Part shown: positions 5,613-56,301 of the stretch, in pieces
Layout of the letters: each line of letters begins with the position of its first letter
Numbering within the stretch: the stretch's first letter is position 1
NCBI GenBank assembly: GCA_964591485.1
Contig: CAZQDE010000009.1
Coordinates: 19-64,018, forward strand
Direction: 5' to 3'
From: an uncultured Anaerolineaceae bacterium
Lineage (GTDB): Bacteria > Chloroflexota > Anaerolineae > Anaerolineales > E44-bin32
Length of the DNA: 64,000 nt
Notes under the pieces: model-generated
Seen by the model: only the letters and a program-made list of their open reading frames with translations
Databases searched by the model: none
What the model was told of the DNA's origin: nothing
Made by a program: the position numbers and the translations under genes

Positions 5613-5653
5613 GGAGAAAGCCCAGAGGAGTCCACCCGGCCTCGCCCCTTGCC

Positions 5654-12389: not shown

Positions 12390-12414
12390 CCCTCCTCAGG
12401 CCGGCTGATACAAT
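12386..12414 (+). promoter_or_regulatory. Sigma70 promoter of the phosphohexomutase gene
   Basis: TTGACC (12386-12391), 17-nt spacer, TACAAT (12409-12414) with extended TG. Confidence 0.7.
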
Positions 12415-12447
12415 CCGGCCGCCATTTCGGAGAGTGGAGGAAAGAAG

Positions 12448-32348: not shown

Positions 32349-33088
32349 TCCCGACCAGCCGTCCATCCAGCGGTTCGCAGGTGCAGGAGATGTTCAGCCG
32401 CATCGCGGCGCGCTACGACCGGCTGAACCGCTTGATGACATGGGGGCGTGATCGGGCCTGGCGTCGCGAGACCATCGCCGAAATCCGGCTGGCACCCGGC
32501 GAGCGCTTCCTCGATGTGGGCTGCGGCACGGGGGATCTGGCTCTCGAAGCGCTGCGTCGGCAGCCAGATGCAGATATCATCGCCTGCGACTTCACTGCCG
32601 CCATGCTGCGGCTTGCCCGCAGCCGGCCCGGTGCCGGCCAGGTGGCCTGGGTGCTCGCGGACGCCACACACCTGCCCTTTGCCCATGACTCGATCGATGC
32701 GCTGGCCTCAGGCTTTCTTCTCCGCAACCTGGTCGATCTTACGGCGGGTCTCTCCGAGCAAGCGCGCGTGCTCAAGCCGGGGGGCCGCTTCGCCGCGCTC
32801 GACACCACGCCTCCCCAAATACGCCTTTTTGCACCTTTCGTCCGCTTCTATCTGGCACGGGTGATCCCTGCGCTTGGGCGGATGTTCGCGGGTGATGTAG
32901 AGGCCTACCACTACCTGCCGGCCACCACCCAAGGCTTCCTGCCGCCGGAGAAGCTGGCCGCAACGCTGCGCAGCGCCGGCTTCACTGGGCTGCGACTGAC
33001 CCGCCGCATGTTTGGCGCCATTGCGATTCACTGGGCGATGAAAACAGCACGACCTGTTTCTGAGCGAGAAGACCATAAGGCCCCATGA
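32345..33088 (+). CDS. menG: Demethylmenaquinone methyltransferase (UbiE/MenG)
   Basis: VQEMFSRIAARYDRLNRLMTWG, LDVGCGTGD, FLLRN and AYHYLPAT. Confidence 0.88.
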   Translation: MIPTSRPSSGSQVQEMFSRIAARYDRLNRLMTWGRDRAWRRETIAEIRLAPGERFLDVGCGTGDLALEALRRQPDADIIACDFTAAMLRLARSRPGAGQVAWVLADATHLPFAHDSIDALASGFLLRNLVDLTAGLSEQARVLKPGGRFAALDTTPPQIRLFAPFVRFYLARVIPALGRMFAGDVEAYHYLPATTQGFLPPEKLAATLRSAGFTGLRLTRRMFGAIAIHWAMKTARPVSEREDHKAP

Positions 33089-40142: not shown

Positions 40143-41309
40143 TTAGACACCTCCGGTACCGTAGGCGGATGGATCGGTGGGTGTCTCGCCGGAGGGATCG
40201 AAGACGTACACATAGGTTCCAATATCCGCCCAGTTGTAGATCCAATGGGCATCGGCCGGCGAGAGGTTCACGCAGCCATGTGAGCGCGGGTAGCCATAGC
40301 CGTTATGCCAATAAGCGCCGTGTAAGGCCCGGGCTTCATCAAAGTAGAGAGACCAGGGCACGTCCTCGAGGTAGTAATAGTCCGAGCGATCCGCTTCGAA
40401 GGCGCCTTCCATGGATGTCGACTCGAGCTTCTCAAACACCTGGAACACGCCCGGCCGGGTCCACCAGCCCTTCAGGCCGCTTGAAACCAGGGTGGCGTAG
40501 ATCATTTCGCCTCCCTCGTAAACGGCAAGGGTCTGCTCGTAGAGATTGATCGAGATCCAGCGGTCGCTCTCGACACCCTCGGGGCGCTCTGGATCCGGCT
40601 CGACCTTGGCGATCAGACGTTGTTCAATCCAGTCTTGCGGGCCGATTCGATACCAGTCCCAGCCACCCACATTCCTGGTCTCGTAGACCCATACGACCTG
40701 GAAGCGGTCGAAGAAGCGCCCGGTCGCGGGCGCGTCATAGCCGGGCTCGCTACGGGACTCGGTCCGGTTCAGGATCCAGGCAAAGGTTCCGCTCGGCGTC
40801 CGGCTGAAGGCCAAGCCCCGGAAAGTGGGAGCTCCGACGCGAGCGAGTCCTTCCCCGCGGATGTAAACCCCGGGCACGATCATGTAGACCACCTTGTCGT
40901 GCCGCTCGTAGCGCTCGATCCAGGAGAAGTAGACAAACCCTGGAGGGACGGTCCGGTAGGGGTTTTCCTCCCGGAAGGCATCATCCACGCTGGTGTAGAG
41001 AGGCGTGCCCTCGTCCCGGCGCGAGCGCAGGTAATGGAAGGGCATGTTGCCCAAAGTTGGGTCGAGGGTCTTGAGCGGGAAGGGCCTCTCGGGATACTCG
41101 CCCCGGCGGGCGGAGTCGAACAGCGCAGTCCTGGCGCCGGATCGGCGGCACAGGAACGGATGGCGAAGCTGCAAGTCCAGTGGGCAGAATGCTACAGCCT
41201 CGGATTGCGGAGGGCTGGGGCTGGCATCCACGCCAGCGGAGGCCGGCCCAGCCAGGAGGCCTAGCCCCATCGAGGCCAATGTACATGCGAGCAACAGCCT
41301 CGATCTCAT
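40143..41309 (-). CDS. L,D-transpeptidase (YkuD domain)
   Basis: Signal peptide, WISINLYEQTL, TRPGVF and HGAYWHNGYGYPRSHGCVNL. Confidence 0.9.
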   Translation of the reverse strand: MRSRLLLACTLASMGLGLLAGPASAGVDASPSPPQSEAVAFCPLDLQLRHPFLCRRSGARTALFDSARRGEYPERPFPLKTLDPTLGNMPFHYLRSRRDEGTPLYTSVDDAFREENPYRTVPPGFVYFSWIERYERHDKVVYMIVPGVYIRGEGLARVGAPTFRGLAFSRTPSGTFAWILNRTESRSEPGYDAPATGRFFDRFQVVWVYETRNVGGWDWYRIGPQDWIEQRLIAKVEPDPERPEGVESDRWISINLYEQTLAVYEGGEMIYATLVSSGLKGWWTRPGVFQVFEKLESTSMEGAFEADRSDYYYLEDVPWSLYFDEARALHGAYWHNGYGYPRSHGCVNLSPADAHWIYNWADIGTYVYVFDPSGETPTDPSAYGTGGV

Positions 41310-41411
41310 AGGCAGCGACCAAATCTCAAACCGGCCATGATAGGTCCTATTATAGAGTGCCGCGGGCCGAAAGTCATCCCCCAATTGGAGCCAGCAGGCC
41401 GACCTACCGCA

Positions 41412-43205
41412 CTAGCGTTTATGCTGCACGTCTGCCTGGATCCGCGCCAGCAGCGACTCCACGCTCATCGGGCCCAGATCCTCGCCCGAGCGGAGCCGCA
41501 CGGCCACCTGGCTGCCTTCGACCTCTCGATCACCCACTACGAGCATATAGGGGACCTTCTGCAATTGCGCGTTGCGAATCTTGGCATTCATGCGGTCGCT
41601 GCTCGCATCCACCTCCACCCGCAATCCCGCCTCGCGAAGCTTCTCGGCCACCCCGTTCGCATACCCGACATGGCGATCGGCGATGGGGATCAAAACGGCC
41701 TGAACCGGTGCCAGCCAGACCGGAAAAGCCCCGGCGTAGTGCTCGATGAGCACGCCCATGAAGCGCTCCATGGAGCCAAGCAGCGCCCGGTGGATCATGT
41801 ACGGACGGTGTTCCTTGCCATCCTCAGCGATGTAGGAGAGATCGAAGCGTTCCGGCAAAACGAAGTCGAACTGGATGGTGGAGAGCTGCCATTCCCGCCC
41901 GAGCGCGTCCCGCACCTTGATGTCGATCTTCGGCCCATAGAAGACGGCCTCGCCTTCATCGATCTTGTATGGCACACCAGCCCGCTCCAAGGCCTGCTGC
42001 AAGGCGTCCGTCGGCGCCACCCAATCCTCGGGCTCTCCAGCCGCCTTCTCGGGGTTACGCGTCGAGAGGTATGCCTGGAAGTCTTCGAAACCAAAGGCTC
42101 GAAGCAGCTTCAAGCTGAAGGCCAGCACGCGGTCGATCTCCTCCGGCATCTGGTCCGGCCGGCAGAACAGGTGGGCGTCGTCTTGCGTAAAACCCCTCAC
42201 ACGCAGCAGCCCGTGCAGCACGCCGCTGCGCTCAAAGCGGTACACCGTCCCCCATTCCGCGAATCGCAACGGCAGGTCGCGGTAGGAGCGCATCCGGCTC
42301 TTATAGATTTGGACGTGGAAAGGGCAATTCATCGGCTTGAGGAAGTACTTCTGCCCCTCGATATCCAGCGGGGAGTACATGCCATCCTGATACCAGTCGA
42401 GATGGCCGCTTGTCTCCCAGAGTTGGGCTTTCCCGATGTGTGGTGAGTAGACGAACTCATATCCGCCGCGTTCATGCTCGGCCCGGCAGAAATCCTCCAC
42501 GATCTTGCGGACCATGCCTCCCTTGGGGCTCCAGAGAATCAATCCCGGCCCCACTTCCTCACTGACGGTGAAGAGGTCCAGCTCGCGGCCCAATTTGCGG
42601 TGATCACGCTTCTGGGCCTCCTCCAGCTTCCAGAGATAGCGCTCGAGCTCTTCCGGCGTCGTCCAGGCGGTACCATAGATGCGCTGCAACATGGGGCGGC
42701 GTTCGTCCCCGCGCCAGTAGGCCCCGGCGACATTCAGCAGCTTGATGGCATCGGGGTTAAGCTGGCGTGTATTCTCCACGTGCGGGCCGCGGCAGAGATC
42801 CACAAACTGATCATGCTTATAGATCGAGAGCTCCGGCGTCTCATCGAGCGGGTTGCCGTGCTCGTCCATCTCACCCCTTTCAAGGTCATCGATGAGTTCC
42901 AGCTTGTAGGGCTGGTCGGCGAACAACCGGCGCGCCTCCTCCGCGGAGAGCACCCTTCGTTCGAAGGGATGGGCCCCGCGGATGATTTCCCGCATGCGTC
43001 TCTCGATCGCCTCCAAATCCTCAGGGGTCAGAGGGCGCGGGAGATCAAAGTCGTAATAGAAGCCATCTTCGATGGCTGGGCCGATGGCGATCTTGGCTTC
43101 GCCCGGGAACATCTCCATCACAGCCTGCGCCATGACATGCGCGGCTGAATGGCGGATGCGGTGCAAATCTTCCTCCTGAGACTCTTCCTTCTTGCCCTTC
43201 GCCAT
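41412..43205 (-). CDS. thrS: Threonine--tRNA ligase (short form lacking N-terminal TGS domain)
   Basis: RHSAAH, DLCRGPH, RDHRKLG, KPMNCPFH, RVRGFTQDD and FYGPKID. Confidence 0.97.
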   Translation of the reverse strand: MAKGKKEESQEEDLHRIRHSAAHVMAQAVMEMFPGEAKIAIGPAIEDGFYYDFDLPRPLTPEDLEAIERRMREIIRGAHPFERRVLSAEEARRLFADQPYKLELIDDLERGEMDEHGNPLDETPELSIYKHDQFVDLCRGPHVENTRQLNPDAIKLLNVAGAYWRGDERRPMLQRIYGTAWTTPEELERYLWKLEEAQKRDHRKLGRELDLFTVSEEVGPGLILWSPKGGMVRKIVEDFCRAEHERGGYEFVYSPHIGKAQLWETSGHLDWYQDGMYSPLDIEGQKYFLKPMNCPFHVQIYKSRMRSYRDLPLRFAEWGTVYRFERSGVLHGLLRVRGFTQDDAHLFCRPDQMPEEIDRVLAFSLKLLRAFGFEDFQAYLSTRNPEKAAGEPEDWVAPTDALQQALERAGVPYKIDEGEAVFYGPKIDIKVRDALGREWQLSTIQFDFVLPERFDLSYIAEDGKEHRPYMIHRALLGSMERFMGVLIEHYAGAFPVWLAPVQAVLIPIADRHVGYANGVAEKLREAGLRVEVDASSDRMNAKIRNAQLQKVPYMLVVGDREVEGSQVAVRLRSGEDLGPMSVESLLARIQADVQHKR

Positions 43206-44961: not shown

Positions 44962-45414
44962 CTAGCGGCGCGAGATCAGCCCCCGCAAGAGAATCATCAG
45001 GCCAAACCCGATCAGCAGAATGGGCCAGATCAGGCCCCAGCCGTAAGTGTCACCCAGTCCAAGACCCAGGAAGATCAATCCCAGGATAAGCGTGCCGATC
45101 ACGGGTCTGGTATAGGTTGGCAGGACGAGCCGGGCGAGCACTTCAATCAACAGCAGCGCGCCGGCCCCCGTCAACACCCAGGACCACGGCCCCATCCGCG
45201 CTGGCAGCGGCATGGCCTGCATAAGACCCAGGTTGGACGCCAGGAAGACAACCCCAGCCCAAATCAGGATCAGGGCCCAGATGACCGCCCCCAAAGGATC
45301 GCGGGACCACTTCTCGTCCCAGCTTTTCTCTTCCCTCTTCTCGTGCTGCTTCTCCTCGGCTTTCTCCTCCACCTTCTCATCCGGGTAATTCTTCGATTGC
45401 ACAGGTTCGGTCAT
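44962..45414 (-). CDS. Small membrane protein (LiaF/DUF5668-like)
   Basis: EKxEEK repeats, then four TM helices; ends WPILLIGFGL. Confidence 0.65.
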   Translation of the reverse strand: MTEPVQSKNYPDEKVEEKAEEKQHEKREEKSWDEKWSRDPLGAVIWALILIWAGVVFLASNLGLMQAMPLPARMGPWSWVLTGAGALLLIEVLARLVLPTYTRPVIGTLILGLIFLGLGLGDTYGWGLIWPILLIGFGLMILLRGLISRR

Positions 45415-45557
45415 GGTTCTCCCTCCTCGCCGGGGTTCCACCCGCTAGCATCCGAGCCCGTCCGGTGCACGCCTTTGCCGCTCACCTTGAGAAGCCCGCA
45501 GCCTTCATCATACCCTTGAATCCGTCACTTGCCGAACGCCGATATCCTGGCGGCTCG

Positions 45558-46976
45558 TCAGCGCTGGAAGATGACATCCGCCGGCATGCCGGGCTTGAGC
45601 TTCCCTTCGGTGCCTTTCAGAGAAAGCGTAATGGCATAGACTGTAGTTTGCCGCTCCTCCTGGGTTTGCACATTGCGCGGCGTGTATTCGGCCTCATCGG
45701 CGATGCGGATCACCTCCGCCTCGAAGGTTTCATCCGGGAAGGAGTCCGCTCTCACTTCCGCTCGGTCCCCAAGATGAACCTTTCCATATTGATTCTCCGG
45801 CAAATACACCGTGATGCGCAGGTCGGTCAGGATTCCCAGGGTGATGCCCACAACCCCCGGCTGGATCACCTCGCCCGGATCCACGGTCCGGACCAAGATG
45901 GTCCCATCGATCGGTGCGCGGATTGTCAACCTCTGGATCTGCTGTTCTATCGCACTCCGAGCCGCTTGAGCCTGCGCCAGATTCTTCTCTGCATAGGCCA
46001 CCTGGGCTTTGGCTTGTGCCAGGGCGGCTTCGGCCTGCCCGACTTGAGCCTCCGCCTGGGCAAGCCCCGCGGCTGCGGCCTGCACGCCAAGGGATTGATC
46101 GCCGGCAAGCAGGGCATAGTAGCCTAGCCGGGCTTCCTGATAGCCATCCCAGGCTGCGGCCACGCGTGCCCGGGCCTCAAGCAGCGCATCCGCCTGCTCC
46201 TCAGTCAGGACCTGTTCGTAGGCCTCCTGAGCCTGCTGAAGCGCCAGCCTGGCGTCCTCGTAGCGCTCCTCGACTTGATCCCGAAGCACACCGGCTTCCA
46301 AGCCCTCAATCGTCCGCCGGCGCATGGCATCCGCCAGCAAGAAGGCCTGGCGCGCCTCTTCGAGCGCCATCTCTCGCGCCAGCGCCTCGGGCCCAAGGGC
46401 TTCAAGATCCTCCTCCAGCGCGCCCTCGGCCGCCTCCAAGGCATCTTTCGCTGCCTGCAGGCCACGTTCGGCGGCTTGGAGCTGCTCCCCCGGCGAGAAA
46501 TACCATGCCGGCAGATCGAACTGCCAGGGCACGGCCTGGTACCAGCGGGCGCGCCGCGAAGGCGCCTCCTCCCCCAGCGCCGCGGCCAGTTGCAGCTCCA
46601 CTTGCAGCGCGGCCGCCTCCCGTCCGGCCTCCGCCGTCTTCATGGCCGCCTCGGCCGCTCCCACCGTGGAGCGGGCTGCCTCCAGGCCCGCGGCGGCTGT
46701 CTCTTCTGCAGCGATCGCCTGCGCCAATTGCGCCTCCAGCGCCGTCCCCTCCAGACGGAAGAGGGCGTCGCCGGCCCGGACAGACTCACCCTCCTCCACG
46801 AAGACCTCCGCCACCAGCCCTGGAAGCTCGGACGATACCGATATCTCCGGGGCTTCGACCACTCCAGAAGCGCTTAGCGCGGGCTGCTTCTCACCACCTA
46901 AGCTCGCGCATGAGGCCAGAGCAGCAGCCATTGCGACCACCCAAAGCCCGCGACACAGCCTCCTCAAAGCAAGCAT
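45558..46976 (-). CDS. HlyD-family efflux adaptor lipoprotein
   Basis: Lipobox LASC, biotinyl-like VEEGESVRAGD, long Ala/Gln coiled coil, IRAPIDG and AEYTPRNVQT. Confidence 0.9.
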   Translation of the reverse strand: MLALRRLCRGLWVVAMAAALASCASLGGEKQPALSASGVVEAPEISVSSELPGLVAEVFVEEGESVRAGDALFRLEGTALEAQLAQAIAAEETAAAGLEAARSTVGAAEAAMKTAEAGREAAALQVELQLAAALGEEAPSRRARWYQAVPWQFDLPAWYFSPGEQLQAAERGLQAAKDALEAAEGALEEDLEALGPEALAREMALEEARQAFLLADAMRRRTIEGLEAGVLRDQVEERYEDARLALQQAQEAYEQVLTEEQADALLEARARVAAAWDGYQEARLGYYALLAGDQSLGVQAAAAGLAQAEAQVGQAEAALAQAKAQVAYAEKNLAQAQAARSAIEQQIQRLTIRAPIDGTILVRTVDPGEVIQPGVVGITLGILTDLRITVYLPENQYGKVHLGDRAEVRADSFPDETFEAEVIRIADEAEYTPRNVQTQEERQTTVYAITLSLKGTEGKLKPGMPADVIFQR

Positions 46977-47000
46977 TCCGACCTCCTAGGCCCATCTCTT

Positions 47001-47960
47001 TTACCGGGATGGCTTCCCGCTGCGCATGCAGGCGATGAAGACATCCTCCAGCGAGGGCTCTATCCTCCGCAAATCGAAGACTTGCAAGCCAGCCGCCGCC
47101 AGCTCGGCGGGTATGGCTTCCGCTCCGGCGGCGTGATCCACCAGCCAGATGTGCAGCAATGCGCCGTAGAGTTCGACGCTCTGGATGCCCAGCCGCTTCA
47201 TCCGCGCCCGCTCGCGCAGGAGCTCGTACGCCCGGGTGCTATCCGAGACAGCCGCCTCGAACACGGCTCCGTGCATCATATCCCTTTTAATCTCCTCCGG
47301 TGAACCCATGGCAATGATTTCCCCACGCTGAAGGAAAGCCAGCCTGTGGCAATGCTCGGCCTCATCCATGTAGTGGGTTGTCACAAATACCGTGACGCCC
47401 CGCTCCACAAGCTCATAGAGCAACTCCCAAAACGCCCGCCGCGAGAGGGGATCGACGCCTGCTGTGGGCTCATCCAGAAAAAGCACCGAGGGGTCATGAA
47501 GCAACGTCGCGCCGAGCGCCAACCGCTGCCGCCACCCCCCGGAGAGATCCCGAGTGATCATGCGCTCGAGGCCCCTCAGGCCCGCCATCTCAATGGCCTG
47601 GCCCATACGTTCCTTTAGCCGCTCGCCACCCAGGCCATAGGCCGTTCCATAGAACCGCAGGTTCTGCTCCACCGTGAGATCCCGGTATAGGCTGAATTGC
47701 TGCGACATATACCCGACCCGCGGGCGGATGGCGGCAGGGTCTTGAACGACCCGAATACCCAACACCTCAACCTCTCCCGATGAGGGCTTCAAGAGCCCCA
47801 GCAGCATACGGATGGTCGTCGTCTTTCCGGAGCCATTGGGGCCCAGGAAGCCGAAGATCTCTCCGCCGCGCACGACGAAACTCACGCCCTTCACGGCCAT
47901 GAAATCACCGAATTGCTTGGCCAACCGCTCGGCTCGAATAGCGATCTCACCCGGGTTCAC
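47001..47960 (-). CDS. ABC-2 efflux ATP-binding protein
   Basis: GPNGSGKTT, LSGGWRQR, LDEPTAGVDP and TTHYMDEAE. Confidence 0.93.
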   Translation of the reverse strand: MNPGEIAIRAERLAKQFGDFMAVKGVSFVVRGGEIFGFLGPNGSGKTTTIRMLLGLLKPSSGEVEVLGIRVVQDPAAIRPRVGYMSQQFSLYRDLTVEQNLRFYGTAYGLGGERLKERMGQAIEMAGLRGLERMITRDLSGGWRQRLALGATLLHDPSVLFLDEPTAGVDPLSRRAFWELLYELVERGVTVFVTTHYMDEAEHCHRLAFLQRGEIIAMGSPEEIKRDMMHGAVFEAAVSDSTRAYELLRERARMKRLGIQSVELYGALLHIWLVDHAAGAEAIPAELAAAGLQVFDLRRIEPSLEDVFIACMRSGKPSR

Positions 47961-47969
47961 ATCGCCCTC

Positions 47970-49103
47970 TCAGTTCAGCGCCCGCCGCACATAGCGCAAC
48001 GAGGCGCCCCCGATGACCAGTCCCAGGCCCACCAGGGCAGCCGCGTGGGGCCAGAGCACATCGATTCCGCTGGCCTTCAGCAAGATGCCGCGCAGGATGG
48101 CCAGCCAATGGTGGGCCGGCACCAGGTTCGCAGCTTTTTGCAGGATCAGGGGCATGGTTTCCACCGGGACGGCATAGCCCGTGAACATGAAATCAGCCAT
48201 GCCAACCATCATAACCAGCAGGAAAGCCTGATGCTGCGAGCGGGCGAAGACCGAGATAGCCAGCCCTTTGCTGAGCTCGACCAAAACATACCCCAGCGCC
48301 AGGATCAGCAGCAGCGCCAAGGACCCACGCAAGGGCACACCGAAGACCATGTTCACCATGCCGAGCATCAGCAGGAAGTCTGTGAAACCAATCAGCATGG
48401 CCGGAATGGCTTTGCCGATGATGATCTCCAGCGAGCTGAAGGGCATCACCAGGAGTTGCTCGAGGGTGCCGAGTTCGCGCTCGCGGGAGATGGACAGAGC
48501 CGCGAATATCAGCACGGTGAATTCAAGCATCAGGCCCAGTTCCGCCGGGGTCGTGTACAAGGCTTCGCTGAGAGATTCGTTAAACCATACCCGCAGGCTG
48601 GGAAAGAAACTCTCCAGCTGCTGGCTGTCCAGGCCCACTCGCTCGACGGCAATGCGATCCCCCCAGGAGCGAGCCACACCTTCGATCGCCCGGCGCGCTG
48701 CCGTTGCAGGAAGGCTCTCGGCCCCGTTCAGCAGCACCGCCACGACGGGTCGGCCGGAAGCACTGCGGACTTGCTCGGCAAATCCTCTGGGAAGGATCAC
48801 GGCGGCGTTGATCTCGCCGCGCAGCAGCGCGGCCTCGATCTCGGCCTGATCGTCGACCCATTCGGGCGCACGGAATGTGCCCGTGTTGCCCAAATCCACC
48901 ACGAAGGCGCGGCTGGCTGCGCTCCTGTCGCCATCAAGCACCATCAGCGGCAGATTCGTCATCGGTCTGGAGGTCGCCCAGCCGACGAGCACCAATTCAA
49001 TTGCGCCGCCCAGCAGCATGAAAGCCGGCAGCCACCAATCCCGGCGCAGGTGGATGAACTCTTTAATAGCAAGCGAAGCAATTCTACGCAGCGCGGATCG
49101 CAT
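47970..49103 (-). CDS. ABC-2 efflux permease (YbhR-like)
   Basis: KEFIHLRRD, WFNESL and RERELGTLEQLLVMP. Confidence 0.9.
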   Translation of the reverse strand: MRSALRRIASLAIKEFIHLRRDWWLPAFMLLGGAIELVLVGWATSRPMTNLPLMVLDGDRSAASRAFVVDLGNTGTFRAPEWVDDQAEIEAALLRGEINAAVILPRGFAEQVRSASGRPVVAVLLNGAESLPATAARRAIEGVARSWGDRIAVERVGLDSQQLESFFPSLRVWFNESLSEALYTTPAELGLMLEFTVLIFAALSISRERELGTLEQLLVMPFSSLEIIIGKAIPAMLIGFTDFLLMLGMVNMVFGVPLRGSLALLLILALGYVLVELSKGLAISVFARSQHQAFLLVMMVGMADFMFTGYAVPVETMPLILQKAANLVPAHHWLAILRGILLKASGIDVLWPHAAALVGLGLVIGGASLRYVRRALN

Positions 49104-50237
49104 TCAGGCCAACCTCTTGCGGAAGAAGAGCGCCGCCACGCCAGTGAAGGCCATGCCCAGGATGATCAACATCACGGCGTAGGGCCATAGGATCTCCAGG
49201 CCCACACCAGTCAGGAACATGCCGCGCGTGATGATGGCGTAATGCGTGCCGGGTAATCCCAGCGCCTCCAGTCTCATCACCTCCGGCATCGCCGCGATGG
49301 GGAAGAAAATGCCGGTCAGGAAGAACCCGGGGAAGAATATTAGCAAGAGGGAAAGCGCAAGCGCCGCGGCCTGGGTGCGCATGAAGACACCGATAATCAC
49401 TCCCATGCTCAGCACTGCAAATAGGAAGAAGATCGAGAGCAAGAAGAAGAGAGCGAAATTGCCATGGAACGGCACGTCGAACCAGGCCCTCGCCAGGACC
49501 GGCATGAAGATCACATTGGCCATGCCCACCAGGATATAGGGGGCCATCTTCCCCAGCAGCAATTCGGCGCGACCAATGGGAGTGGCCATAAGCTGCTCCA
49601 GTGTCCCGTGCTCACGCTCATGCGCCAGGGCCAGCGCGACCGAAAGGGCTGGGAACCCGAGCACCATGGAGATCAGCCCGGGAATAAGGTCTACACGCGG
49701 CTCCAGACCGGGATTGAACCATGCCCTCACCCTGAGGTCCACAGGCTGGAGCGTATCCAGCGGGATGCCCATGGCCTGAAGCTGGGCCGAGAGTTGATCC
49801 CGCAAGAATTGCTCGGCACGCCAGCCGACATGGTCCACTGCGAAGGCACCGCTCTCCGGCTCGGTCCCATCGATGATGATTTGCAGCGGCATGCCCTCCA
49901 GGCTCAGCAGGCGGCGGCTGAAATCAGGAGCCATGACCAAAGCGGCTTTGATCTCACCTCTAACAAGCAGTGCTTCGATCTCCTCCAGCGAGTCCACGTA
50001 GCCGTAGAGGTCCAGATCCTTCCCCGCGGCAATCCCCTGCACGAAAGACCGCGAAATGGAACTGCGATCATGATCGAGCACAGCAAAGGGCACATGCTCA
50101 ATGTCCACGGTGAGGGCATATGCCATCAGCAGCAGCAACAGCGTGGGCGTGAGAAGCACCAGGATGAAGGTCGATCGGTCCCGCAGGATGTGATAGGTTT
50201 CCTTCCGGGCCACAGCCAGGAGATGGCGCCAGGACAT
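49104..50237 (-). CDS. ABC-2 efflux permease (YbhS-like)
   Basis: KETYHILRD, WFNPGL and HEREHGTLEQLMATP. Start set at ATG 50237. Confidence 0.9.
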   Translation of the reverse strand: MSWRHLLAVARKETYHILRDRSTFILVLLTPTLLLLLMAYALTVDIEHVPFAVLDHDRSSISRSFVQGIAAGKDLDLYGYVDSLEEIEALLVRGEIKAALVMAPDFSRRLLSLEGMPLQIIIDGTEPESGAFAVDHVGWRAEQFLRDQLSAQLQAMGIPLDTLQPVDLRVRAWFNPGLEPRVDLIPGLISMVLGFPALSVALALAHEREHGTLEQLMATPIGRAELLLGKMAPYILVGMANVIFMPVLARAWFDVPFHGNFALFFLLSIFFLFAVLSMGVIIGVFMRTQAAALALSLLLIFFPGFFLTGIFFPIAAMPEVMRLEALGLPGTHYAIITRGMFLTGVGLEILWPYAVMLIILGMAFTGVAALFFRKRLA

Positions 50238-50238
50238 G

Positions 50239-51186
50239 TCAGTCGGCCTCCTGGGTATCCATCTGGCGGATGAGGGAGATGAAGGCCTCCTCCATCCGCG
50301 GCGGAGTCCGGCGCAACGATTGAATCCCCACCCCCTCCTCTTCCAAGCGGACTTGAATCTCAGGCAGCCGGACGCCGGCGTCATCGACCACAAGATGCAG
50401 GGCCTCGCCATAGGTCTGCACCTCCAGGACGCCTTCCATCCCGGCCAGCGTCCTGCGGGCCGCCCGCCAATCTTCAGGACGCAGCTCAAGCAGATCGCCC
50501 GGCAATCGTCGCCGCAGCGCCTCGGGAGTGTCGCAGATGATCATGCGCCCCTCGTACATGAGGCCAACTCGCATACAGCGGTCGGCTTCGTCCATATAGG
50601 GCGTGCTCACGACTATCGTCGTGCCCCGCAGGTTCAGATCTCCCAGAATCTCCCAGAATTCGCGCCGCGATACGGGGTCCACACCCGTGGTCGGCTCATC
50701 CAGGAGCAGGACCTCCGGCTCATGGATCAGGGTGCAGGCCAGGGCCAGCTTCTTCTTCATCCCGCCTGATAGATGCACAGCCCGCCGGCCCTCAAAACCC
50801 TCCAGCCCCGCAAACGCCAGCAAATCGGCCGCACGCAGCTCGACCTCCTGTGGGTCCACATCGAAGATTGCGGCGAAGAAGCGCAGGTTCTCCATCACCG
50901 AAAGTTCCCCATACAGACTAAACTCCTGCGCCATGTAACCCACTTTCCGTTTGGCCGCCTCGGCCTGCCTCGAGAGGTCATAGCCTGCAATCCAGGCCTC
51001 GCCCTCCGAAATCGACAGCAGCCCGGCAAAAAGGCGCAGTGTGGTCGTCTTGCCAGCTCCGTCCGGGCCGACCAGGCCGAAAAGTTCACCGCGCCGGATC
51101 TCCAGGTCGAGCCCCTCGACGGCCCAGACCTTTCCGAATCGCCGCCCTAGTCCTTGGCAGCGGATGATGGGATCGGGAATCTCCAT
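50239..51186 (-). CDS. ABC-2 efflux ATP-binding protein
   Basis: GPDGAGKTT, LSGGMKKK, LDEPTTGVDP and STPYMDEA. Confidence 0.93.
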   Translation of the reverse strand: MEIPDPIIRCQGLGRRFGKVWAVEGLDLEIRRGELFGLVGPDGAGKTTTLRLFAGLLSISEGEAWIAGYDLSRQAEAAKRKVGYMAQEFSLYGELSVMENLRFFAAIFDVDPQEVELRAADLLAFAGLEGFEGRRAVHLSGGMKKKLALACTLIHEPEVLLLDEPTTGVDPVSRREFWEILGDLNLRGTTIVVSTPYMDEADRCMRVGLMYEGRMIICDTPEALRRRLPGDLLELRPEDWRAARRTLAGMEGVLEVQTYGEALHLVVDDAGVRLPEIQVRLEEEGVGIQSLRRTPPRMEEAFISLIRQMDTQEAD

Positions 51187-51193
51187 CGACTGG

Positions 51194-51466
51194 CTAGCTG
51201 CTCCGGGCCCGCTTGATGATCCACAGGACCAGCAGCGCACCGATGGCGGGCTCCAAAGCCACGCCCAAATACTTCAGGGTGGTGCTGAATCCCATAGCGG
51301 GGATGACGAACCAATCGATGAGGCCCACTGCGATGGTCGTTGCCACCGCCACGTAGTAATCGCCGGGCACTCCCAGGGGGCGCTCCTCTTTCCAAATGAA
51401 TCCTGCCACGTAGCCCATCAAAAGCCCCACAATAGCCATGGCTACAACCAGAATCAGGATTTCCAT
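51194..51466 (-). CDS. Small membrane protein (GlsB/YeaQ/YmgE-like)
   Basis: 90 aa with three TM helices; good SD. Confidence 0.65.
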   Translation of the reverse strand: MEILILVVAMAIVGLLMGYVAGFIWKEERPLGVPGDYYVAVATTIAVGLIDWFVIPAMGFSTTLKYLGVALEPAIGALLVLWIIKRARSS

Positions 51467-51493
51467 CTCGTCCTTCCTTTCCTCCGTACAAGA

Positions 51494-52426
51494 TCAGACA
51501 CCGGCGGATTCCGGCAAGGTGAGCTGGTGTGCCGGGTGGAGCGCGCCGCGCTTCAACGCCCTGCGCAGGCGTGCCCTCCAGCCAGGTCCCAGCCTCAAGG
51601 GTTCGGCGGCCAACGCCTGTCGCGCCAATTCGCGCCCCAAGGAAATGAGGCGGTCGGCCTGCCCATAATCCCAGAAGGAAACCTCTATCGGCGCCGGCAG
51701 CTCGATCACCCGTAACGCCGCCCCCAGCCGACGCGCCCAGCATTCCTCATACGCCCGTTGCGCTTCGACCATCAGCGAGAGTGCATAGCCACTGATGCCC
51801 AGAATCCCCTTGGCCGTGGCATTCGACCCCATGGAGAAGCCCACATTCAGGCCCACGATGCGTGTGGCGCCCCGCTCGATGGCCGCGGTCAGCGGCAGCT
51901 TGGCAAAGACGCCACCATCCAAATAGCGCTCGTCACCAACAGGCCAGGGCGGAAAATAGGGAGGCACCGCCGTGCTCGCCATGGCACCATCCAGGAGACG
52001 GTCCTGGGGATCATCCCCGAAGACCCGCATCTTGCCGCTGCGCATCCCCACCGCCACAGCGTAGGCCCGGATGCCTGTCTTGGCCGTCAATTCCCCGAAA
52101 GTGTCCATCCCGCGTGGCAGGTTCTCGCGCAGGAAAGCCGCCAGTGCTTCGCTGGCCAGAAGACCGTCCTTGCCGCTCACGATCCTGCGCAGGGCGACGA
52201 AAGGCTTGGGAACACCCACCTGATCCGGCCCGGCTCGCCGCCAGGTGTCCTGCAACTCCTGGACACCCTCCAGGCTCGGCCGGGCGCCCAGATAGATGGC
52301 ATTCAACGCCCCCGCCGAGGAACCCACAACCATCCGGGGCATCAGGCCCTGTTCGAGCAAGACCTCGAGCGCCCCGGCTTGCATGGCGCCAAAATTGGCC
52401 GCACCGCTCATGACGAGTGCCAGCAT
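51494..52426 (-). CDS. Patatin-like phospholipase
   Basis: SGAANFGAMQAG, GSSAG nucleophile elbow and YLDGG. ATG overlaps the upstream TGA. Confidence 0.9.
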   Translation of the reverse strand: MLALVMSGAANFGAMQAGALEVLLEQGLMPRMVVGSSAGALNAIYLGARPSLEGVQELQDTWRRAGPDQVGVPKPFVALRRIVSGKDGLLASEALAAFLRENLPRGMDTFGELTAKTGIRAYAVAVGMRSGKMRVFGDDPQDRLLDGAMASTAVPPYFPPWPVGDERYLDGGVFAKLPLTAAIERGATRIVGLNVGFSMGSNATAKGILGISGYALSLMVEAQRAYEECWARRLGAALRVIELPAPIEVSFWDYGQADRLISLGRELARQALAAEPLRLGPGWRARLRRALKRGALHPAHQLTLPESAGV

Positions 52427-52959
52427 CAGACCCTCCCCCTCCTCTCCGAAGGACTCGGATTCGTAACCGCGCCCCTCCAAGCCACTGGGCGCAGCTCCAC
52501 TACAGGGATGTAAGCGGCCAGCGCCCGGTAGGCCGCCTCGGAGGGCTCCATCTCGAACCCCATAAACGAAGCAAGAGCTCGCAGCGCAGCGGGGTACTTG
52601 CGCCCGTATTCTGCGAAGATCTCCCCAGCCCGCGCCTCGGGCAGCGGCTCGGCCTGAACCCTCCACCTCCGGTTCCCCACCTGAATCCAGGCTTCCGGTT
52701 GCGCCCGAATATTCCTGAACCAATCGGCCTTGGGTCCCCAAGCTGAAGCCACATAGTATATCCCACGCTCCGGATCGTGGCTGACCACTTCGAGCACGGT
52801 CCTGCGCGTCAGTCCGCTCCGCCGGCCGCGATGCTCCAACATCAAGAAGCGTGAACCCAGGAGCCAGCCCAACCGCGCCCTGTAGAGTGCGACCGGCAAG
52901 CGCGCCAGCCAGCGCATCCACCCCCGCAGCGGCCTGGGCTCCCGTTTGCGTCGCAACAT
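52426..52959 (-). CDS. Deazaflavin-dependent nitroreductase family (DDN-like) oxidoreductase
   Basis: LEHRGRRSG, VASAWG and ADWFRNIRAQP. Confidence 0.85.
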   Translation of the reverse strand: MLRRKREPRPLRGWMRWLARLPVALYRARLGWLLGSRFLMLEHRGRRSGLTRRTVLEVVSHDPERGIYYVASAWGPKADWFRNIRAQPEAWIQVGNRRWRVQAEPLPEARAGEIFAEYGRKYPAALRALASFMGFEMEPSEAAYRALAAYIPVVELRPVAWRGAVTNPSPSERRGRV

Positions 52960-52962
52960 GTC

Positions 52963-53214
52963 TCACCTCAATTCGATGGCCCGCTCGGGACACTGCAACA
53001 CGCAAGCACCGCAGGCGATGCAGCCTTCTTCGTTCTGGAAGATCGCCACCCCTTGCACCCGATCAGGAAGCCAGCAGCCCACCGGGCACACCTCATAGCA
53101 TTCCCACACACCCTTGCATCGAGCCGCATCGAAGTGGATGCGTAGGTGGCGCAGTTGTCGAGCCAGGCGCCAGTGCTCCGCCAGAAGCGATCCCAATCCA
53201 GGCGACTCAGCCAT
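52963..53214 (-). CDS. 4Fe-4S dicluster ferredoxin (HgcB-like position)
   Basis: CKGVWECYEVCP and CIACGACVLQCP; 3 bp from the corrinoid gene. Confidence 0.88.
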   Translation of the reverse strand: MAESPGLGSLLAEHWRLARQLRHLRIHFDAARCKGVWECYEVCPVGCWLPDRVQGVAIFQNEEGCIACGACVLQCPERAIELR

Positions 53215-53217
53215 GGC

Positions 53218-54840
53218 TCACCGCCAACCGAACACCCGGGGCACCAGCCAGTAGGCCAGGCCCAGCGCTGCACCTATCACCGCCTCCCAGCCCCAGTTCG
53301 CCTGCTCGCCGCGCATCAGCGGCGACATCCCTTGAAGCTCGGCCGCCACAAACACCGAGAGGCCGGCCAACCCGATGCCCCGCGCAAAGATGCTGGACGC
53401 CGGAGCCGGATCCACGAGCCAGGTGTATAGACCCAGCCCAAGCAGGCTGATCACAGCCAGCGGCAGGCTCTTCGCCAGTCCATCGCGCCCAGGCAGCCAC
53501 GGCATGGCTATGGCGTAGAAGGTCGAGAGCCCCACCAGGCTGAGCAGGACCGGCCGAAAGAGCAAGGGCCAGAAGACGGCAACCGGCAACAGGATGAGCA
53601 AGCCGTAGAAACCTAGCGTCACGGCCATCATCTCAAGGCGGTCGCGCATCGGGAAGCGGACCCAGCGCATGCTGTCCGTTTTTTGCAATTCTGCCCGCAG
53701 ATAGGCGGGGATATCAGCCGCGCGCACCGGCCCCCAATGCACTTCCCATCCTGTCTCCCGCCGGATCTTCCAGCCGTCGACGCCGTTGGCGCAAAGCTGG
53801 GGCAGGATCAGGCACTTCCGCCGCAAGTAGCTCTCCAGCCCACTGGCATGGATTGCTCCGATCACCCGCTCCGCCGTGAGGAAGCCCCCGCCGGCTGCGC
53901 ACCATACGTTGATGCCGCTCGAGTTCACCACCAGGACCCAGGCGTCCACCCGCCCATCCAGCGGCGCAATCAGACGCCTGACGGTGAGATCGAAGTTTCC
54001 CGTTGCCAGCACGGGCGACTCCGGCCCGGGGTTCCCGAGCCTGTAGAGGCCGGGCTCGACCTTAGGATAAGGCGGCAAGATGCGCAGAAAGAGACCCCAT
54101 AGATCGAGCGCCAGCGTGCGTAGATCCACCCGATGCTGGAGCCGACCCAGCACGGGCAAGGTTTGGCCCTGTCCCGGCGGCACCTCCTTCGCGTCGGCCA
54201 CCATCATCAGCAGGCTCCCCCAAAGGATGCTCTCGCACCGGTTGACCCGAAATCCCGCCTGGTCGAGCATTCTCTCGAGATCCCGCAACGGATGAGTCGT
54301 GGTCCGAGTAAGGAGCCATGTGAGCACGCATAGAGGGATGCGCAGGAAGAGGTAGAGAACCGCGGCTACGGGCTGGCGAGGGCGGACCTCGTCGACCAGG
54401 ATCAACCGGCCATCCGGCGCGAGGATCCGCTGTATCTGTCGCAGCACTTGGAGCCGGGCTTGACCCGGCAATTCGCTGAGGAGCAGGCTGGCCACAACGG
54501 TTTCGAAACTTTCGGGCTCAAAGCGCTCTTCGAGCATCGCCGCATCGCTGCACACCCAGCGGACGCGGTCCGCGAATCCAGCCTCCTCGAGGCACCGTTT
54601 CGCTTCGGCGAGCATCGGCGCGGATACATCCAGCGCGGTTACCGCCGCGCCCCTCGCCGCCATCTGCAAGACTAGATCGCCGGTTCCGCAGCCAAGATCC
54701 AGCACCCTTTCTCCCGGCTGGATCCATCTCTCCGCGATCTTCGTATGCAGCCGCGCCAGGCGCCCTAAGGTGAGCAGCCGGATACCACGGGCATAGTCCC
54801 TGGGCCGCGTTTCGAGCCATTTCATAAATACCGTGGCCAT
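53218..54840 (-). CDS. Class I SAM methyltransferase fused to an HgcA-like (CdhD-type) corrinoid domain and membrane domain
   Basis: VLDLGCGTGD, then PGLYRLGNPGPESPVLATGN, GINVWCAAGG, LILPQL, WGPVRAADIPAYL, and 4-5 C-terminal TM helices. Confidence 0.85.
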   Translation of the reverse strand: MATVFMKWLETRPRDYARGIRLLTLGRLARLHTKIAERWIQPGERVLDLGCGTGDLVLQMAARGAAVTALDVSAPMLAEAKRCLEEAGFADRVRWVCSDAAMLEERFEPESFETVVASLLLSELPGQARLQVLRQIQRILAPDGRLILVDEVRPRQPVAAVLYLFLRIPLCVLTWLLTRTTTHPLRDLERMLDQAGFRVNRCESILWGSLLMMVADAKEVPPGQGQTLPVLGRLQHRVDLRTLALDLWGLFLRILPPYPKVEPGLYRLGNPGPESPVLATGNFDLTVRRLIAPLDGRVDAWVLVVNSSGINVWCAAGGGFLTAERVIGAIHASGLESYLRRKCLILPQLCANGVDGWKIRRETGWEVHWGPVRAADIPAYLRAELQKTDSMRWVRFPMRDRLEMMAVTLGFYGLLILLPVAVFWPLLFRPVLLSLVGLSTFYAIAMPWLPGRDGLAKSLPLAVISLLGLGLYTWLVDPAPASSIFARGIGLAGLSVFVAAELQGMSPLMRGEQANWGWEAVIGAALGLAYWLVPRVFGWR

Positions 54841-55446
54841 CTAACCCTCGCGCCTCCGCACACCTTCATAGAAGAGATTCCAGGCGGCATGCTCCATGCG
54901 GTCCCAGTCCACGCCGCTAGGGTCGATGATCCAAAAGAGGGCGATCCCTTCGATCAGGCCGATGGCGGCCAGGGCAAATTCCTCCGGCTCAAGGGGTTTG
55001 AATTCGCCGGCCTGGATGCCCTGCCGCAGGAGGTCAGTCAGGATTTGCTGGTACCGCCGATAATAGGCGAGCAACACGCGCCGAACGGCTTGGTTGCGCG
55101 CTGCTAATGCGAAGAACTCATAGCCCAGTGGCAGAATGCGTTCGAAACGACGGATTTCCTGCACGCTGGCCTGCATGATGGATTGGATACGTTCGGCCGC
55201 CGATCCCTCGCCTTCCAGCAGGTGCTCAGCGGTTCGCATGGGCATGGCGAAGATCCGTTGGAGCAAGGCATGGATAAGCTCTTCCTTGCTGCGGTAGTAC
55301 CAATAGAGGGCCCCTTTCGAGAGGCCCGATTCACTGGCGATGTCGTCCATGCGAGCGCCGTGGAACCCTCGCAAGGCGAAGATCTTTTCGGCCGCGTCGA
55401 GGATCTGGCTGCGGCGCCGCTGCTCGCGGTCTTCCGAAGATGGCAT
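54841..55446 (-). CDS. TetR/AcrR family transcriptional regulator
   Basis: ILDAAEKIFALRGFHGARMDDIASESGLSKGALYWYYRSKEEL helix-turn-helix. Confidence 0.95.
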   Translation of the reverse strand: MPSSEDREQRRRSQILDAAEKIFALRGFHGARMDDIASESGLSKGALYWYYRSKEELIHALLQRIFAMPMRTAEHLLEGEGSAAERIQSIMQASVQEIRRFERILPLGYEFFALAARNQAVRRVLLAYYRRYQQILTDLLRQGIQAGEFKPLEPEEFALAAIGLIEGIALFWIIDPSGVDWDRMEHAAWNLFYEGVRRREG

Positions 55447-55450
55447 ATTT

Positions 55451-55466
55451 GACTGACCGGTCAGTC
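55451..55466. promoter_or_regulatory. Putative TetR operator
   Basis: Perfect palindrome GACTGACCGGTCAGTC between the -10 box and the tetR ATG. Confidence 0.8.
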
Positions 55467-55473
55467 TAGCGTT

Positions 55474-55502
55474 ACTTTAGGATCAACATTCCCACCTGTC
55501 AA
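55474..55502 (-). promoter_or_regulatory. Sigma70 promoter of the tetR operon
   Basis: TTGACA (55502-55497), 17-nt spacer, TAAAGT (55479-55474). Confidence 0.8.
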
Positions 55503-55536: not shown

Positions 55537-56301
55537 ATGACTGACACACCCACACCCCCCGAACTGCTCCAACCCGCCGCCGAGCCGGAGAAGGCGCCCC
55601 CGGATGAGGTCCGCTTTCGACGCTCCCATCTCTACGCCGCCCTGCTTCCGCTGGCCTTCGTGGCTGGCCTAGGCGCCGGGTTTCTCTTCTGGGGACGCGA
55701 TCAGGCCCCACCCCAGGCCCAGGCAGCGGCCCCTGACGCGCCCTCCGGCGCCATCGATTTGCGCGCCCAGCAGGGGCAAGTTCGGCTTGAAGTAAGCCCT
55801 GATGACGATGCCGCCCTGGGACCCGAGGACGCGCCTGTCACCATCATCGAATTCAGCGACTTCAACTGCCGCTACTGCCGACGCTTTCACCACGAGACCT
55901 TCGGTCCTCTGCTCGAGAGGTTCGCGGATCAGATCCGCTTCGTGTATCGTGATTTCCCGGTGGTGGGGGGCTTCGAAGCCGCCCAGGCCGCTGAGTGCGC
56001 CCGCGAACAGGGCGATTTCTGGGGCTTTCACGACGCCTTATTCAATAGTGAAGGAGTGGCGCTCGACCGCGATCTCTACCAGACCCTGGCGGAGGAGCTC
56101 GGGTTGCACCCTGAAGCCTTGATCGCCTGTCTGGAGGAGGGGCGCTACGCCGCGGAAGTCGAGGCCGACGCTCGATATGCCGCCAGCCTGGGCGTCAACG
56201 GGACGCCCACGTTCTTCATCAACGGCATTCCCATCGTCGGAGCCCAGCCGTTGACAGTCTTCACACAGATTATCGAGGCGGAACTTTCCGAAGGCAGCTA
56301 G
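55537..56301 (+). CDS. Membrane-anchored DsbA/thioredoxin-fold protein
   Basis: TM anchor, GPEDAPVTIIEFSDFNCRYC, YRDFP, GVNGTPTFFING and GAQP. Confidence 0.92.
   Translation: MTDTPTPPELLQPAAEPEKAPPDEVRFRRSHLYAALLPLAFVAGLGAGFLFWGRDQAPPQAQAAAPDAPSGAIDLRAQQGQVRLEVSPDDDAALGPEDAPVTIIEFSDFNCRYCRRFHHETFGPLLERFADQIRFVYRDFPVVGGFEAAQAAECAREQGDFWGFHDALFNSEGVALDRDLYQTLAEELGLHPEALIACLEEGRYAAEVEADARYAASLGVNGTPTFFINGIPIVGAQPLTVFTQIIEAELSEGS

Follow-up and report, generated by a model that had tools for sequence, protein, structure and literature searches.

A putative TetR-controlled operon linking a CpaM::HgcA-like corrinoid methyltransferase to an ABC-2/HlyD exporter in Anaerolineae

Introduction

The mercury-methylating system HgcAB consists of the corrinoid protein HgcA, whose cap helix carries the accepted motif N(V/I)WC(A/S)(A/G/S)GK (PMC10087281), and the dicluster ferredoxin HgcB, of which Cys94 and Cys95 were reported to be crucial for methylation. 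Purified HgcAB was found to take its methyl group from S-adenosylmethionine (SAM) (PMC11588087), and an ArsR-like regulator has been reported for hgcAB. Organisms in culture with fused HgcAB-like genes formed no methylmercury (PMC4646819, PMC10087281). More recently, a 2026 preprint described the dechlorination of CCl4 by heterologously expressed HgcAB, a case of halomethane dehalogenation. A related pair named by NCBI comprises a separate SAM methyltransferase, CpaM, and an HgcAB-like protein in which the HgcA and HgcB parts are fused. Among exporters, CecR(YbiH)-YbhGFSR and RbbA/YhhJ/YhiI of E. coli are TetR-regulated ABC-2 systems of the ATP-binding cassette (ABC) class with an HlyD adaptor. 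Relatives of both kinds of system were found side by side in an eleven-gene array at 45558–55446 of a window, the whole 64,000-nt stretch of DNA analysed here, from an uncultured Anaerolineaceae bacterium (GCA_964591485.1, contig CAZQDE010000009.1, positions 19–64,018). The array encodes a CpaM::HgcA-like fusion protein with an HgcB-like ferredoxin and, further downstream, an ABC-2/HlyD pump.

With guarded confidence, and from comparison of sequences, the array may be read as a single TetR-repressed operon of two modules that are separable elsewhere yet repeatedly linked and co-regulated, for which a methylate-and-export mechanism is proposed. Since all the parts belong to known families, it is the arrangement and the association that are new, and not the machinery. 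A search of a literature library returned no paper on CpaM, its role as a methyltransferase partner, the fusion form, the TetR operator or the link to the pump.

Materials and Methods

Open reading frames (ORFs) of the window were taken from a six-frame listing and assigned to families by Pfam and NCBIfam profile searches. Promoters and terminators were called by a consensus scan, in which a match to the consensus is not proof of function. The conservation survey used one genome per GTDB species and returned 80 species-level loci, of which 78 were labelled Chloroflexota, Anaerolineae or a subgroup, one 'uncultured bacterium' and one Methanosarcinales. Neighbours in these loci were called by tblastn with eleven window proteins, and the denominators given below are the assessable loci. 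Pump orthologues were accepted at an identity of at least 55%, and pump absence was judged within 10 kb. In a reverse test, metagenome contigs were scanned for orthologues of permease 1 (66–100% identical). The operator search covered 1.22 Mb of related loci and allowed two mismatches at most, unless otherwise indicated. Individual loci are cited by L numbers.

Organization of the Eleven-Gene Array

The ORF listing, the translations and a direct reading of the junctions gave eleven genes between 45558 and 55446, all on the minus strand. In 5' to 3' order these are tetR, the CpaM::HgcA-like fusion gene, the ferredoxin gene, a DDN-like gene, a patatin gene, a gene for a small transmembrane (TM) protein, an ATPase gene, two permease genes, a second ATPase gene and the HlyD gene, with intergenic gaps of 0, 3, 3, −1, 27, 7, 1, 0, 9 and 24 nt. 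The gene number, strand, gaps and identities reported in a preliminary description of this DNA were reproduced, the identities by Pfam or NCBIfam matches for all but the 90-aa membrane protein. The 1-bp overlap at the DDN-like/patatin junction, which had been called ATGA-type, reads TGATG. The absence of an internal terminator also held, as the consensus scan gave no convincing minus-strand terminator within the array. The sole minus-strand match there was weak and lay within the HlyD coding sequence, and terminator-like sites numbered seven against a chance expectation of 8.4. A structure as a single operon is supported by these sequence features. The same gene set was found in the same order in approximately 27 other species-level genomes and in metagenome contigs, and the arrangement is therefore not a product of chance.

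The GC content of the operon (0.61–0.66) equals that of the rest of the window and the flanks are housekeeping genes (ThrRS, tRNA-Val, UvrC), so that the locus appears to be ordinary chromosome; on these grounds a horizontal transfer island was rejected. An anti-phage defence system was also rejected, PADLOC having returned only generic matches to methyltransferase, ABC ATPase and patatin domains.

The CpaM::HgcA-like Fusion Protein

The fusion protein (540 aa; 53218–54840, minus strand) was found by NCBIfam searches and an AlphaFold2 (AF2) model to combine a CpaM-type class I SAM methyltransferase, an HgcA-like corrinoid domain and five TM helices. The CpaM model NF043040 was matched with 268.7 bits, above its cut-off of 180, over residues 4–216 (54193–54831, minus strand). 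This domain holds the SAM-binding motif VLDLGCGTG at residues 46–54, and the SAM site is intact, with G50, C51, G52, T53 and D71 invariant in the alignment. The corrinoid-binding (CdhD/CFeSP-like) domain follows at about residues 246–390 (53671–54105, minus strand; PF03599, 53 bits over residues 260–380); its matches among solved structures are 2h9a and 4c1n, in the C-terminal part of the large CFeSP subunit. Its cap-helix motif, I310-NVWCAAGGG-G319 (53884–53913, minus strand), is invariant in 20 homologues, and Cys314 stands at the position of the HgcA cap-helix Cys93. The membrane domain at residues 398–537 (53230–53649, minus strand) consists of five helices by DSSP of the AF2 model, and its conserved motifs, PWLPGRDGL and AELQGMSPLMRGEQANW, were read from invariant alignment columns. 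In the model itself (predicted local distance difference test score, 75.5), a Rossmann methyltransferase and a corrinoid-binding domain are followed by five membrane helices at the C-terminus. When folds were compared with Foldseek, the solved structures nearest to the CpaM domain were Coq5, MitM and RebM, and the remainder of the protein was closest to the deposited computational HgcAB model 9a0b. Sequence search found no solved HgcA structure, the only matches being CFeSP and small-molecule methyltransferases.

The HgcAB-like model NF043039 is divided over two proteins: the fusion protein scored 248.9 bits over model positions 3–285 and the ferredoxin 64.9 bits, giving a sum of about 314, whereas no single polypeptide reaches the cut-off of 285. 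The HgcA-like and HgcB-like parts are two genes 3 nt apart, not one polypeptide. Because the CpaM cut-off is exceeded and the HgcAB-like model is split over the fusion and the ferredoxin, the fusion is interpreted as a rearranged CpaM/HgcAB-like pair. Both forms have a class I SAM methyltransferase, a Cys-capped corrinoid domain with five TM helices, a 2×[4Fe-4S] ferredoxin and a cap helix without Lys. They differ in that CpaM is here fused to the HgcA-like part, with the ferredoxin separate, whereas the named pair has a free-standing CpaM and a fusion of HgcA with HgcB. An exhaustive search with the C-terminal half returned three architectures, namely a separate CpaM with an HgcAB-like protein of 350–380 aa, CpaM::HgcA::HgcB triple fusions of 580–645 aa and CpaM::HgcA-like proteins of 527–545 aa. 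The fusion family has 1107 homologues, approximately 58–60% identical over the full length, and those that are named come from Anaerolineales/Chloroflexi (Anaerolineae/Chloroflexota). The view of the fusion as a new type of protein had consequently to be given up in favour of a domain rearrangement of the NCBI-named CpaM/HgcAB-like pair, represented by more than 1,100 proteins. In ten out of ten relatives looked up, CpaM was adjacent to or fused with the corrinoid protein, which supports a direct partnership between the two.

The Ferredoxin and the Relation to Mercury Methylation

The HgcB-like 2×[4Fe-4S] ferredoxin (83 aa; 52963–53214, minus strand) covers positions 287–349 of NF043039 with the 64.9 bits noted above, and its eight Cys are conserved. 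Together with the cap-helix Cys and the five-TM C-terminal domain expected of HgcA, which the AF2 model places at residues 398–537, this adjoining dicluster ferredoxin could suggest an HgcAB system for mercury methylation that has its methyl-loading domain built in, the more so as SAM donates the methyl group for the real HgcAB. This is highly improbable, since the proteins fall short on four sequence criteria. The fusion protein scored 170.4 bits with the HgcA model NF040863 (cut-off 275) and the ferredoxin 38.9 bits with the HgcB model (cut-off 99). The cap helix, NVWCAAGG, keeps the Cys and lacks the Lys of all six accepted HgcA motifs, invariantly in the 20 homologues, and none of 75 ferredoxin orthologues has the C-terminal Cys-Cys tail, the residues of which (Cys94/Cys95) were reported as crucial in HgcB. 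The lack of methylmercury formation by cultured organisms with fused HgcAB-like genes points in the same direction. Among 150 representative relatives, NVWCAAGK was found in proteins without a fused ferredoxin, and ferredoxin-fused or CpaM-fused relatives carried cap-helix variants without K, with one exception (P0240).

In summary of the comparison with HgcA and HgcB, a homologous corrinoid domain, a Cys at the position of Cys93, a membrane domain and a dicluster ferredoxin partner are shared, and SAM is the likely methyl source in both. The window proteins differ in scoring below the HgcA cut-off, in the missing cap-helix Lys and Cys-Cys tail, in a dedicated SAM-binding domain that HgcA does not have, and in being placed under a putative TetR regulator and not the ArsR-like one reported for hgcAB. 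Mercury is unlikely to be the native substrate.

The Pump Module

The first gene of the pump module encodes a small membrane protein (90 aa; 51194–51466, minus strand) with about three TM segments as read from the sequence and without matches in Pfam or NCBIfam. In the pump loci where it was detected, its gene immediately precedes that of ATPase 1, which is true also of pumps with no fusion gene upstream; it was not found in L034. ABC ATPase 1 (315 aa; 50239–51186, minus strand; PF00005, 107 bits) has a DrrA-type C-terminal domain (PF13732), and its orthologues in syntenic loci are 62–68% identical. The ABC-2 permeases 1 (377 aa; 49104–50237, minus strand; PF12698, 147 bits; orthologues 61–76% identical) and 2 (377 aa; 47970–49103, minus strand; PF12698, 121 bits) are followed by ABC ATPase 2 (319 aa; 47001–47960, minus strand; PF00005, 105 bits) and by the HlyD-family membrane fusion protein (472 aa; 45558–46976, minus strand; PF16576, PF13437 and PF13533). 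The latter has a lipobox, L20-A-S-C23, and a long Ala/Glu-rich middle part, and its NCBIfam HlyD and RND_mfp matches were below the cut-off.

ABC-2 permeases, ABC ATPases and an HlyD adaptor, the parts of a YbhGFSR/RbbA-type exporter, are therefore united with a TetR regulator in one operon, as in the E. coli systems. The best NCBIfam matches of the ATPase and the permeases were to RbbA. Nevertheless, the scores with the RbbA model were 249.5 and 230.8 bits, the cut-off being 1050, and the window pump missed all the equivalog cut-offs. Further differences are the two single-domain ATPase genes in place of a fused double ATPase, the gene order, the extra 90-aa membrane protein and the presence of modifying enzymes in the same operon. 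Downstream of HlyD, at a distance of 116 nt, a LiaF-TM-like membrane protein is encoded (159 aa; 44962–45441, minus strand; PF22570, 25.8 bits, below the cut-off of 27). This gene is kept downstream of HlyD in 12 loci and is possibly a twelfth gene of the operon.

The TetR Regulator, Promoter and Operator

The TetR-family regulator (201 aa; 54841–55446, minus strand) has TetR_N (PF00440, 66 bits) and BetI-type TetR_C_6 (PF13977, 56 bits) domains. No NCBIfam equivalog cut-off was reached, and among solved structures YfiR, Bacillus FadR and TtgR are nearest. Upstream of tetR, the consensus scan gave only one good promoter-like site (55474–55502, minus strand), with TTGACA (55502–55497), a 17-nt spacer and TAAAGT (55479–55474), matching at 10 of 12 positions. 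Between its −10 box and the tetR ATG lies a perfect 16-bp palindrome, GACTGACCGGTCAGTC (55451–55466, without strand), read directly from the sequence, which ends 4 nt before the ATG and is a putative TetR operator. It is present as a single copy in the window, and no second operator was found within the operon there at up to three mismatches. The related loci have 33 conserved operator sites, where by our own estimate chance would give about 0.3. Of these, 31 are positioned 4–49 nt before tetR or 28–32 nt before the fusion gene, the two exceptions being L037 (283 nt) and L059 (784 nt). Control of the operon by TetR through this conserved palindrome is supported by the comparison.

The tetR ATG stands only 4 nt past the operator and about 27 nt past the −10 box, with no Shine-Dalgarno sequence (55446–55479, minus strand), and judging by these distances the leader of the operon transcript is probably very short or absent. 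Riboswitch control by cobalamin or SAM was considered and rejected, as the only Rfam matches at the gathering score in the window and in seven loci outside the main clade were tRNA and rRNA genes. Divergently from tetR, a DsbA-like thioredoxin (Thioredoxin_4; 55537–56301, plus strand; PF13462, 100 bits) is encoded, and the two genes share the 90-bp intergenic region that holds the operator. The DsbA-like family was found in 26 loci, in all but one on the opposite strand upstream of the fusion gene, including loci where the fusion gene and not tetR faces the DsbA-like gene. The DsbA-like gene, though outside the operon, may belong to the same regulon.

Linkage of Methylase and Pump in Related Loci

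The ferredoxin gene directly follows the fusion gene in 73 of 74 assessable loci, and tetR lies within 1 kb upstream of the fusion gene in 24 of 73. A DDN-like gene is found downstream of the ferredoxin in 28/66 loci, patatin in 13/51, and an orthologous ABC-2/HlyD pump after the fusion gene in 21/51. The DDN-like and patatin genes are variable, lineage-specific accessories. According to the preliminary description, the proposed coupling would have to be abandoned if fusion genes never co-occurred with the efflux, patatin or DDN genes; this was not the case, as the pump accompanies the fusion gene in 21 of the 51 assessable species.

The position of the operator is informative where the two modules are arranged differently. 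In L005, L007, L012 and L015 tetR stands between patatin and the pump, and operators were found both 28–32 nt before the fusion gene and 18–19 nt before tetR; L006 shows only the fusion-gene operator of this split arrangement. As the split loci carry operators before the fusion gene and before tetR, one type of regulator appears to govern both units. Five loci outside the main clade (L030, L039, L049, L058 and L067) have tetR immediately before the fusion gene. An operator-like site stands in front of the fusion gene, with no more than two mismatches in L049, L058 and L067 and with three in L030 and L039. In L059 the tetR-pump module is divergent, and the operator is situated between this module and the fusion gene. 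A downstream pump is also seen in L044 and L049, though their fusion proteins are clearly closer to sequences outside the clade and all other flanks differ. In the reverse test, among contigs long enough on the upstream side, the fusion gene was found upstream of the pump in L081, L084 and L094, and in L098 the ferredoxin, DDN-like and patatin genes begin at the contig end, where the fusion gene would be cut off.

A second subfamily, found via look-ups of canonical HgcAB-like proteins, shows a different gene order. In L114 (6543–15731), an NCBI Anaerolineae metagenome-assembled genome (MAG), L116 (3996–14743) and L117 (5489–10080), the succession is TetR, in part a small protein, one or more ABC-2 permeases, CpaM, HgcAB-like, a second methyltransferase and an ATPase. 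L114 and L116 continue with a second ATPase and two adaptors, and the contig of L117 stops after the first ATPase. Since CpaM and HgcAB-like sit between permease and ATPase genes, the methylase genes lie within the pump operon. These pumps are homologous to that of the window, with identities of 55–62% for ATPase 1, 57% for ATPase 2 (L114 and L116), 34–43% for permease 1, 33–45% for permease 2 and, where the adaptor is concerned, about 42% in its C-terminal third. Identity of the corrinoid proteins to that of the window is only about 40%, and the three form a subclade of their own, with 63–67% identity among them. With two component families found together in two gene orders, the linkage is hard to explain by inertia alone.

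Instead of DDN-like and patatin genes, this subfamily has a second methyltransferase. A further class I methyltransferase is often present beside CpaM/HgcAB-like (L110:6720–7397, L113:8169–8909, L114:10145–10801 and L116:9131–9781), which hints at a layout of two methyltransferases plus a corrinoid protein. In L116 a related palindrome, GATTGACTAGTTAGTCAGTCAAT, is located right after the −10 box, and L114 and L117 have a different repeat.

Several observations weigh against a linked and co-regulated pair of modules acting by methylation and export. The pump is absent in 30 of 51 assessable fusion loci (about 59%). L037 (1292–9594) is a variant at the same chromosomal site that has no pump: its fusion, ferredoxin, DDN-like and patatin genes run straight into ThrRS and a YkuD transpeptidase, the counterparts of which lie beyond the pump in the window (41412–43205 and 40143–41384). 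An operator copy was found in L037 upstream of the fusion gene, at a distance of 283 nt, and its contig showed no tetR. Conversely, at least three loci with sufficient upstream sequence, L091, L097 and L103, have no methylase-module gene upstream of the pump, and these pumps have their own operator and, in L091 and L103, also their own tetR. The full cluster is concentrated in one clade of the fusion protein (27 loci plus the window; 67% neighbour-joining bootstrap). In this main clade genes outside the operon are also syntenic, with the divergent DsbA-like gene and an Exo_endo_phos protein upstream and the LiaF-TM-like gene and a GH3-family gene downstream, so that much of the co-occurrence is inherited and not independently selected. 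All the surveyed fusion loci are MAGs from a single phylum. Genes of the F420 or cobamide pathways were absent from the set of 30 window ORFs that was scanned beyond the operon. Lastly, as the fold of CpaM is closest to small-molecule methyltransferases such as Coq5, CpaM may methylate a small molecule instead of cobalt.

From the pumps without a fusion gene and the pump-less L037 it follows that the two modules are each able to stand alone, and the preliminary picture of the eleven-gene set as an obligate unit does not survive these loci. The solitary occurrence of both modules, the flanking synteny of the main clade, by which inheritance explains many of the co-occurrences, and the otherwise variable neighbours of the pair would even suit a juxtaposition by descent of unrelated units, that is, a generic TetR-controlled drug exporter and a methylase pair with a job of its own, co-transcribed by position only. 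Such a juxtaposition is rather unlikely, as both units are preceded by the same operator where they are transcribed separately, CpaM and HgcAB-like are flanked in the other subfamily by permease and ATPase genes of a homologous pump, and the linkage is kept in L044 and L049 despite different flanks. The claimed coupling of methylase and efflux is thus upheld in part: co-occurrence, the shared operator and the second subfamily speak for it, and the concentration of much of the synteny in one clade and the non-obligate gene set against it. For an inducible coupled system, operator conservation and the split loci give comparative support to both the coupling and the inducibility.

Other features of the surveyed loci were also noted. 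Among 145 neighbour ORFs of about 50 loci outside the clade, the recurrent families were TetR (7), MFS_1 (5) and DDN-like (4), and no other neighbour recurred in more than two of the 145. Five loci that lack the ABC-2 pump have an MFS-type transporter as the next gene downstream of the ferredoxin (L017:11960–13282, L020:11935–13320, L024:11990–13315, L070:12313–13533 and L043:12322–13629), co-directional in three and convergent in two, which may represent an alternative exporter. In L044 the ferredoxin is separated from the tetR-pump module by an IS200-like transposase (12057–12620), and in L049 a 4HBT thioesterase (12768–13217) intervenes between the ferredoxin and patatin. The fusion gene of L017 is preceded, at a distance of about 4.3 kb, by a complete rRNA operon (307–5687; 16S, two tRNAs, 23S, 5S). 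The locus labelled as a Methanosarcinales archaeon (L035, JAIWHF010000083.1; coverage 0.39) has, in unchanged order, DsbA-like, tetR and fusion genes of the Anaerolineales type; its contig is probably mis-binned.

Accessory Enzymes and Proposed Mechanism

The DDN-like (FDOR-A) deazaflavin-type oxidoreductase (177 aa; 52426–52959, minus strand) shares with the mycobacterial F420H2-dependent reductases Ddn and FDR-A scores above the cut-offs of TIGR00026 (86.2 bits; cut-off 46.35) and PF04075 (47.7 bits; cut-off 22). It differs from them in being only a distant relative of the solved members (3h96 and 8d4w, E of about 1e-5), and its basic-hydrophobic N-terminus suggests an association with the membrane. 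A dependence of this protein on F420 and a hydrophobic compound or lipid as the substrate, both drawn from the preliminary description, are conjectural. The patatin-like acyl hydrolase (310 aa; 51494–52426, minus strand; PF01734, 101 bits, above the cut-off) has both motifs of the Ser-Asp dyad, GSSAG (residues 35–39) and DGG (residues 170–172).

In the proposed mechanism, the first module would be a membrane-anchored SAM and corrinoid methyl-transfer enzyme, formed by the CpaM::HgcA-like fusion and the HgcB-like ferredoxin and accompanied in this lineage by the DDN-like reductase and the patatin-like hydrolase. The second module would be an exporter made up of the small membrane protein, two ATPases, two ABC-2 permeases and the lipoprotein HlyD adaptor. 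A TetR dimer is envisaged on the 16-bp palindrome, which overlaps the promoter, and a toxic or hydrophobic ligand would free the palindrome. By analogy with purified HgcAB (PMC11588087), the ferredoxin would then reduce the cobalt to Co(I), and the CpaM domain would move the methyl group of SAM to Co(I), giving a Cys-capped CH3-Co(III). The methyl group would be passed to an acceptor at the membrane domain, and the pump would expel the product or the unmodified toxicant.

Hints as to the substrate are all weak, and consist of the Coq5-like fold, a partner from a 'quinone reductase' family, the FadR-, TtgR- and YfiR-like kin of TetR and the halomethane preprint. A tentative and still doubtful proposal is that CpaM-linked HgcA(B)-like proteins are inducible SAM/corrinoid membrane methylases of an electrophilic toxicant, such as a metal(loid), a quinone-like or a halogenated compound, with TetR sensing the toxicant or its product and the pump completing the detoxification.

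ABC-2 exporters often transport lipids and glycolipids. The operon might accordingly serve production, with the methylase, reductase and hydrolase making or remodelling a methylated membrane lipid or envelope component for export by ABC-2/HlyD. The patatin of the window, the 4HBT thioesterase of L049, a weak CMAS/Cfa-family match of the CpaM domain in Pfam, the membrane-embedded HgcA-like part of the AF2 model and the presence of the acyl-CoA-sensing FadR of Bacillus among the closest full-length relatives of TetR are consistent with such a role. It is nonetheless unlikely, given that patatin and DDN-like genes are confined to 13/51 and 28/66 loci, that the second subfamily has a second methyltransferase in their stead and that no lipid-synthesis genes are conserved nearby. 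Moreover, a repressor right at the head of the operon is found more typically in systems of inducible resistance than in those for the housekeeping synthesis of lipids.

Reductive chemistry on halogenated or electrophilic small molecules, with Co(I) as catalyst and the pump clearing the products, was weighed as well. It would draw on the reported dechlorination of CCl4 by HgcAB, on the conserved Cys-capped corrinoid and dicluster ferredoxin and on the DDN-like reductase often found beside the pair. The preprint covers true HgcAB, however, and not the CpaM-linked branch; no dehalogenase-type genes lie nearby, and the SAM methyltransferase, fused or adjacent in every member looked up, would be left unexplained, which makes this reading quite improbable.

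Two further genes of the window concern the metabolism of the host. A MutL/GlmL-family protein (PF13941; 21181–22941, minus strand) gives a hint of cobamide use, this family including the accessory protein of the B12-dependent glutamate mutase. A bona fide UbiE/COQ5 methyltransferase (32345–33088, plus strand; 168 bits) indicates that the host has a separate quinone methylase.

Biological Significance

Mercury methylation looks like a side reaction, and the native role of HgcA-type corrinoid proteins is still debated. A SAM methyltransferase fused to a corrinoid protein provides independent genomic support for the 2024 finding that SAM, and not methyl-folate, loads HgcA-type cofactors. The recurrent link to one exporter family, in two gene orders, points to a substrate or product that is toxic or membrane-active, and the conserved repressor-operator pair turns the question of the substrate into a ligand screen that can be run. 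If the tentative reading as a toxicant methylase were true, the ligand of TetR would show to which class the native substrate of this HgcA-superfamily branch belongs, and would help to explain why mercury methylation exists.

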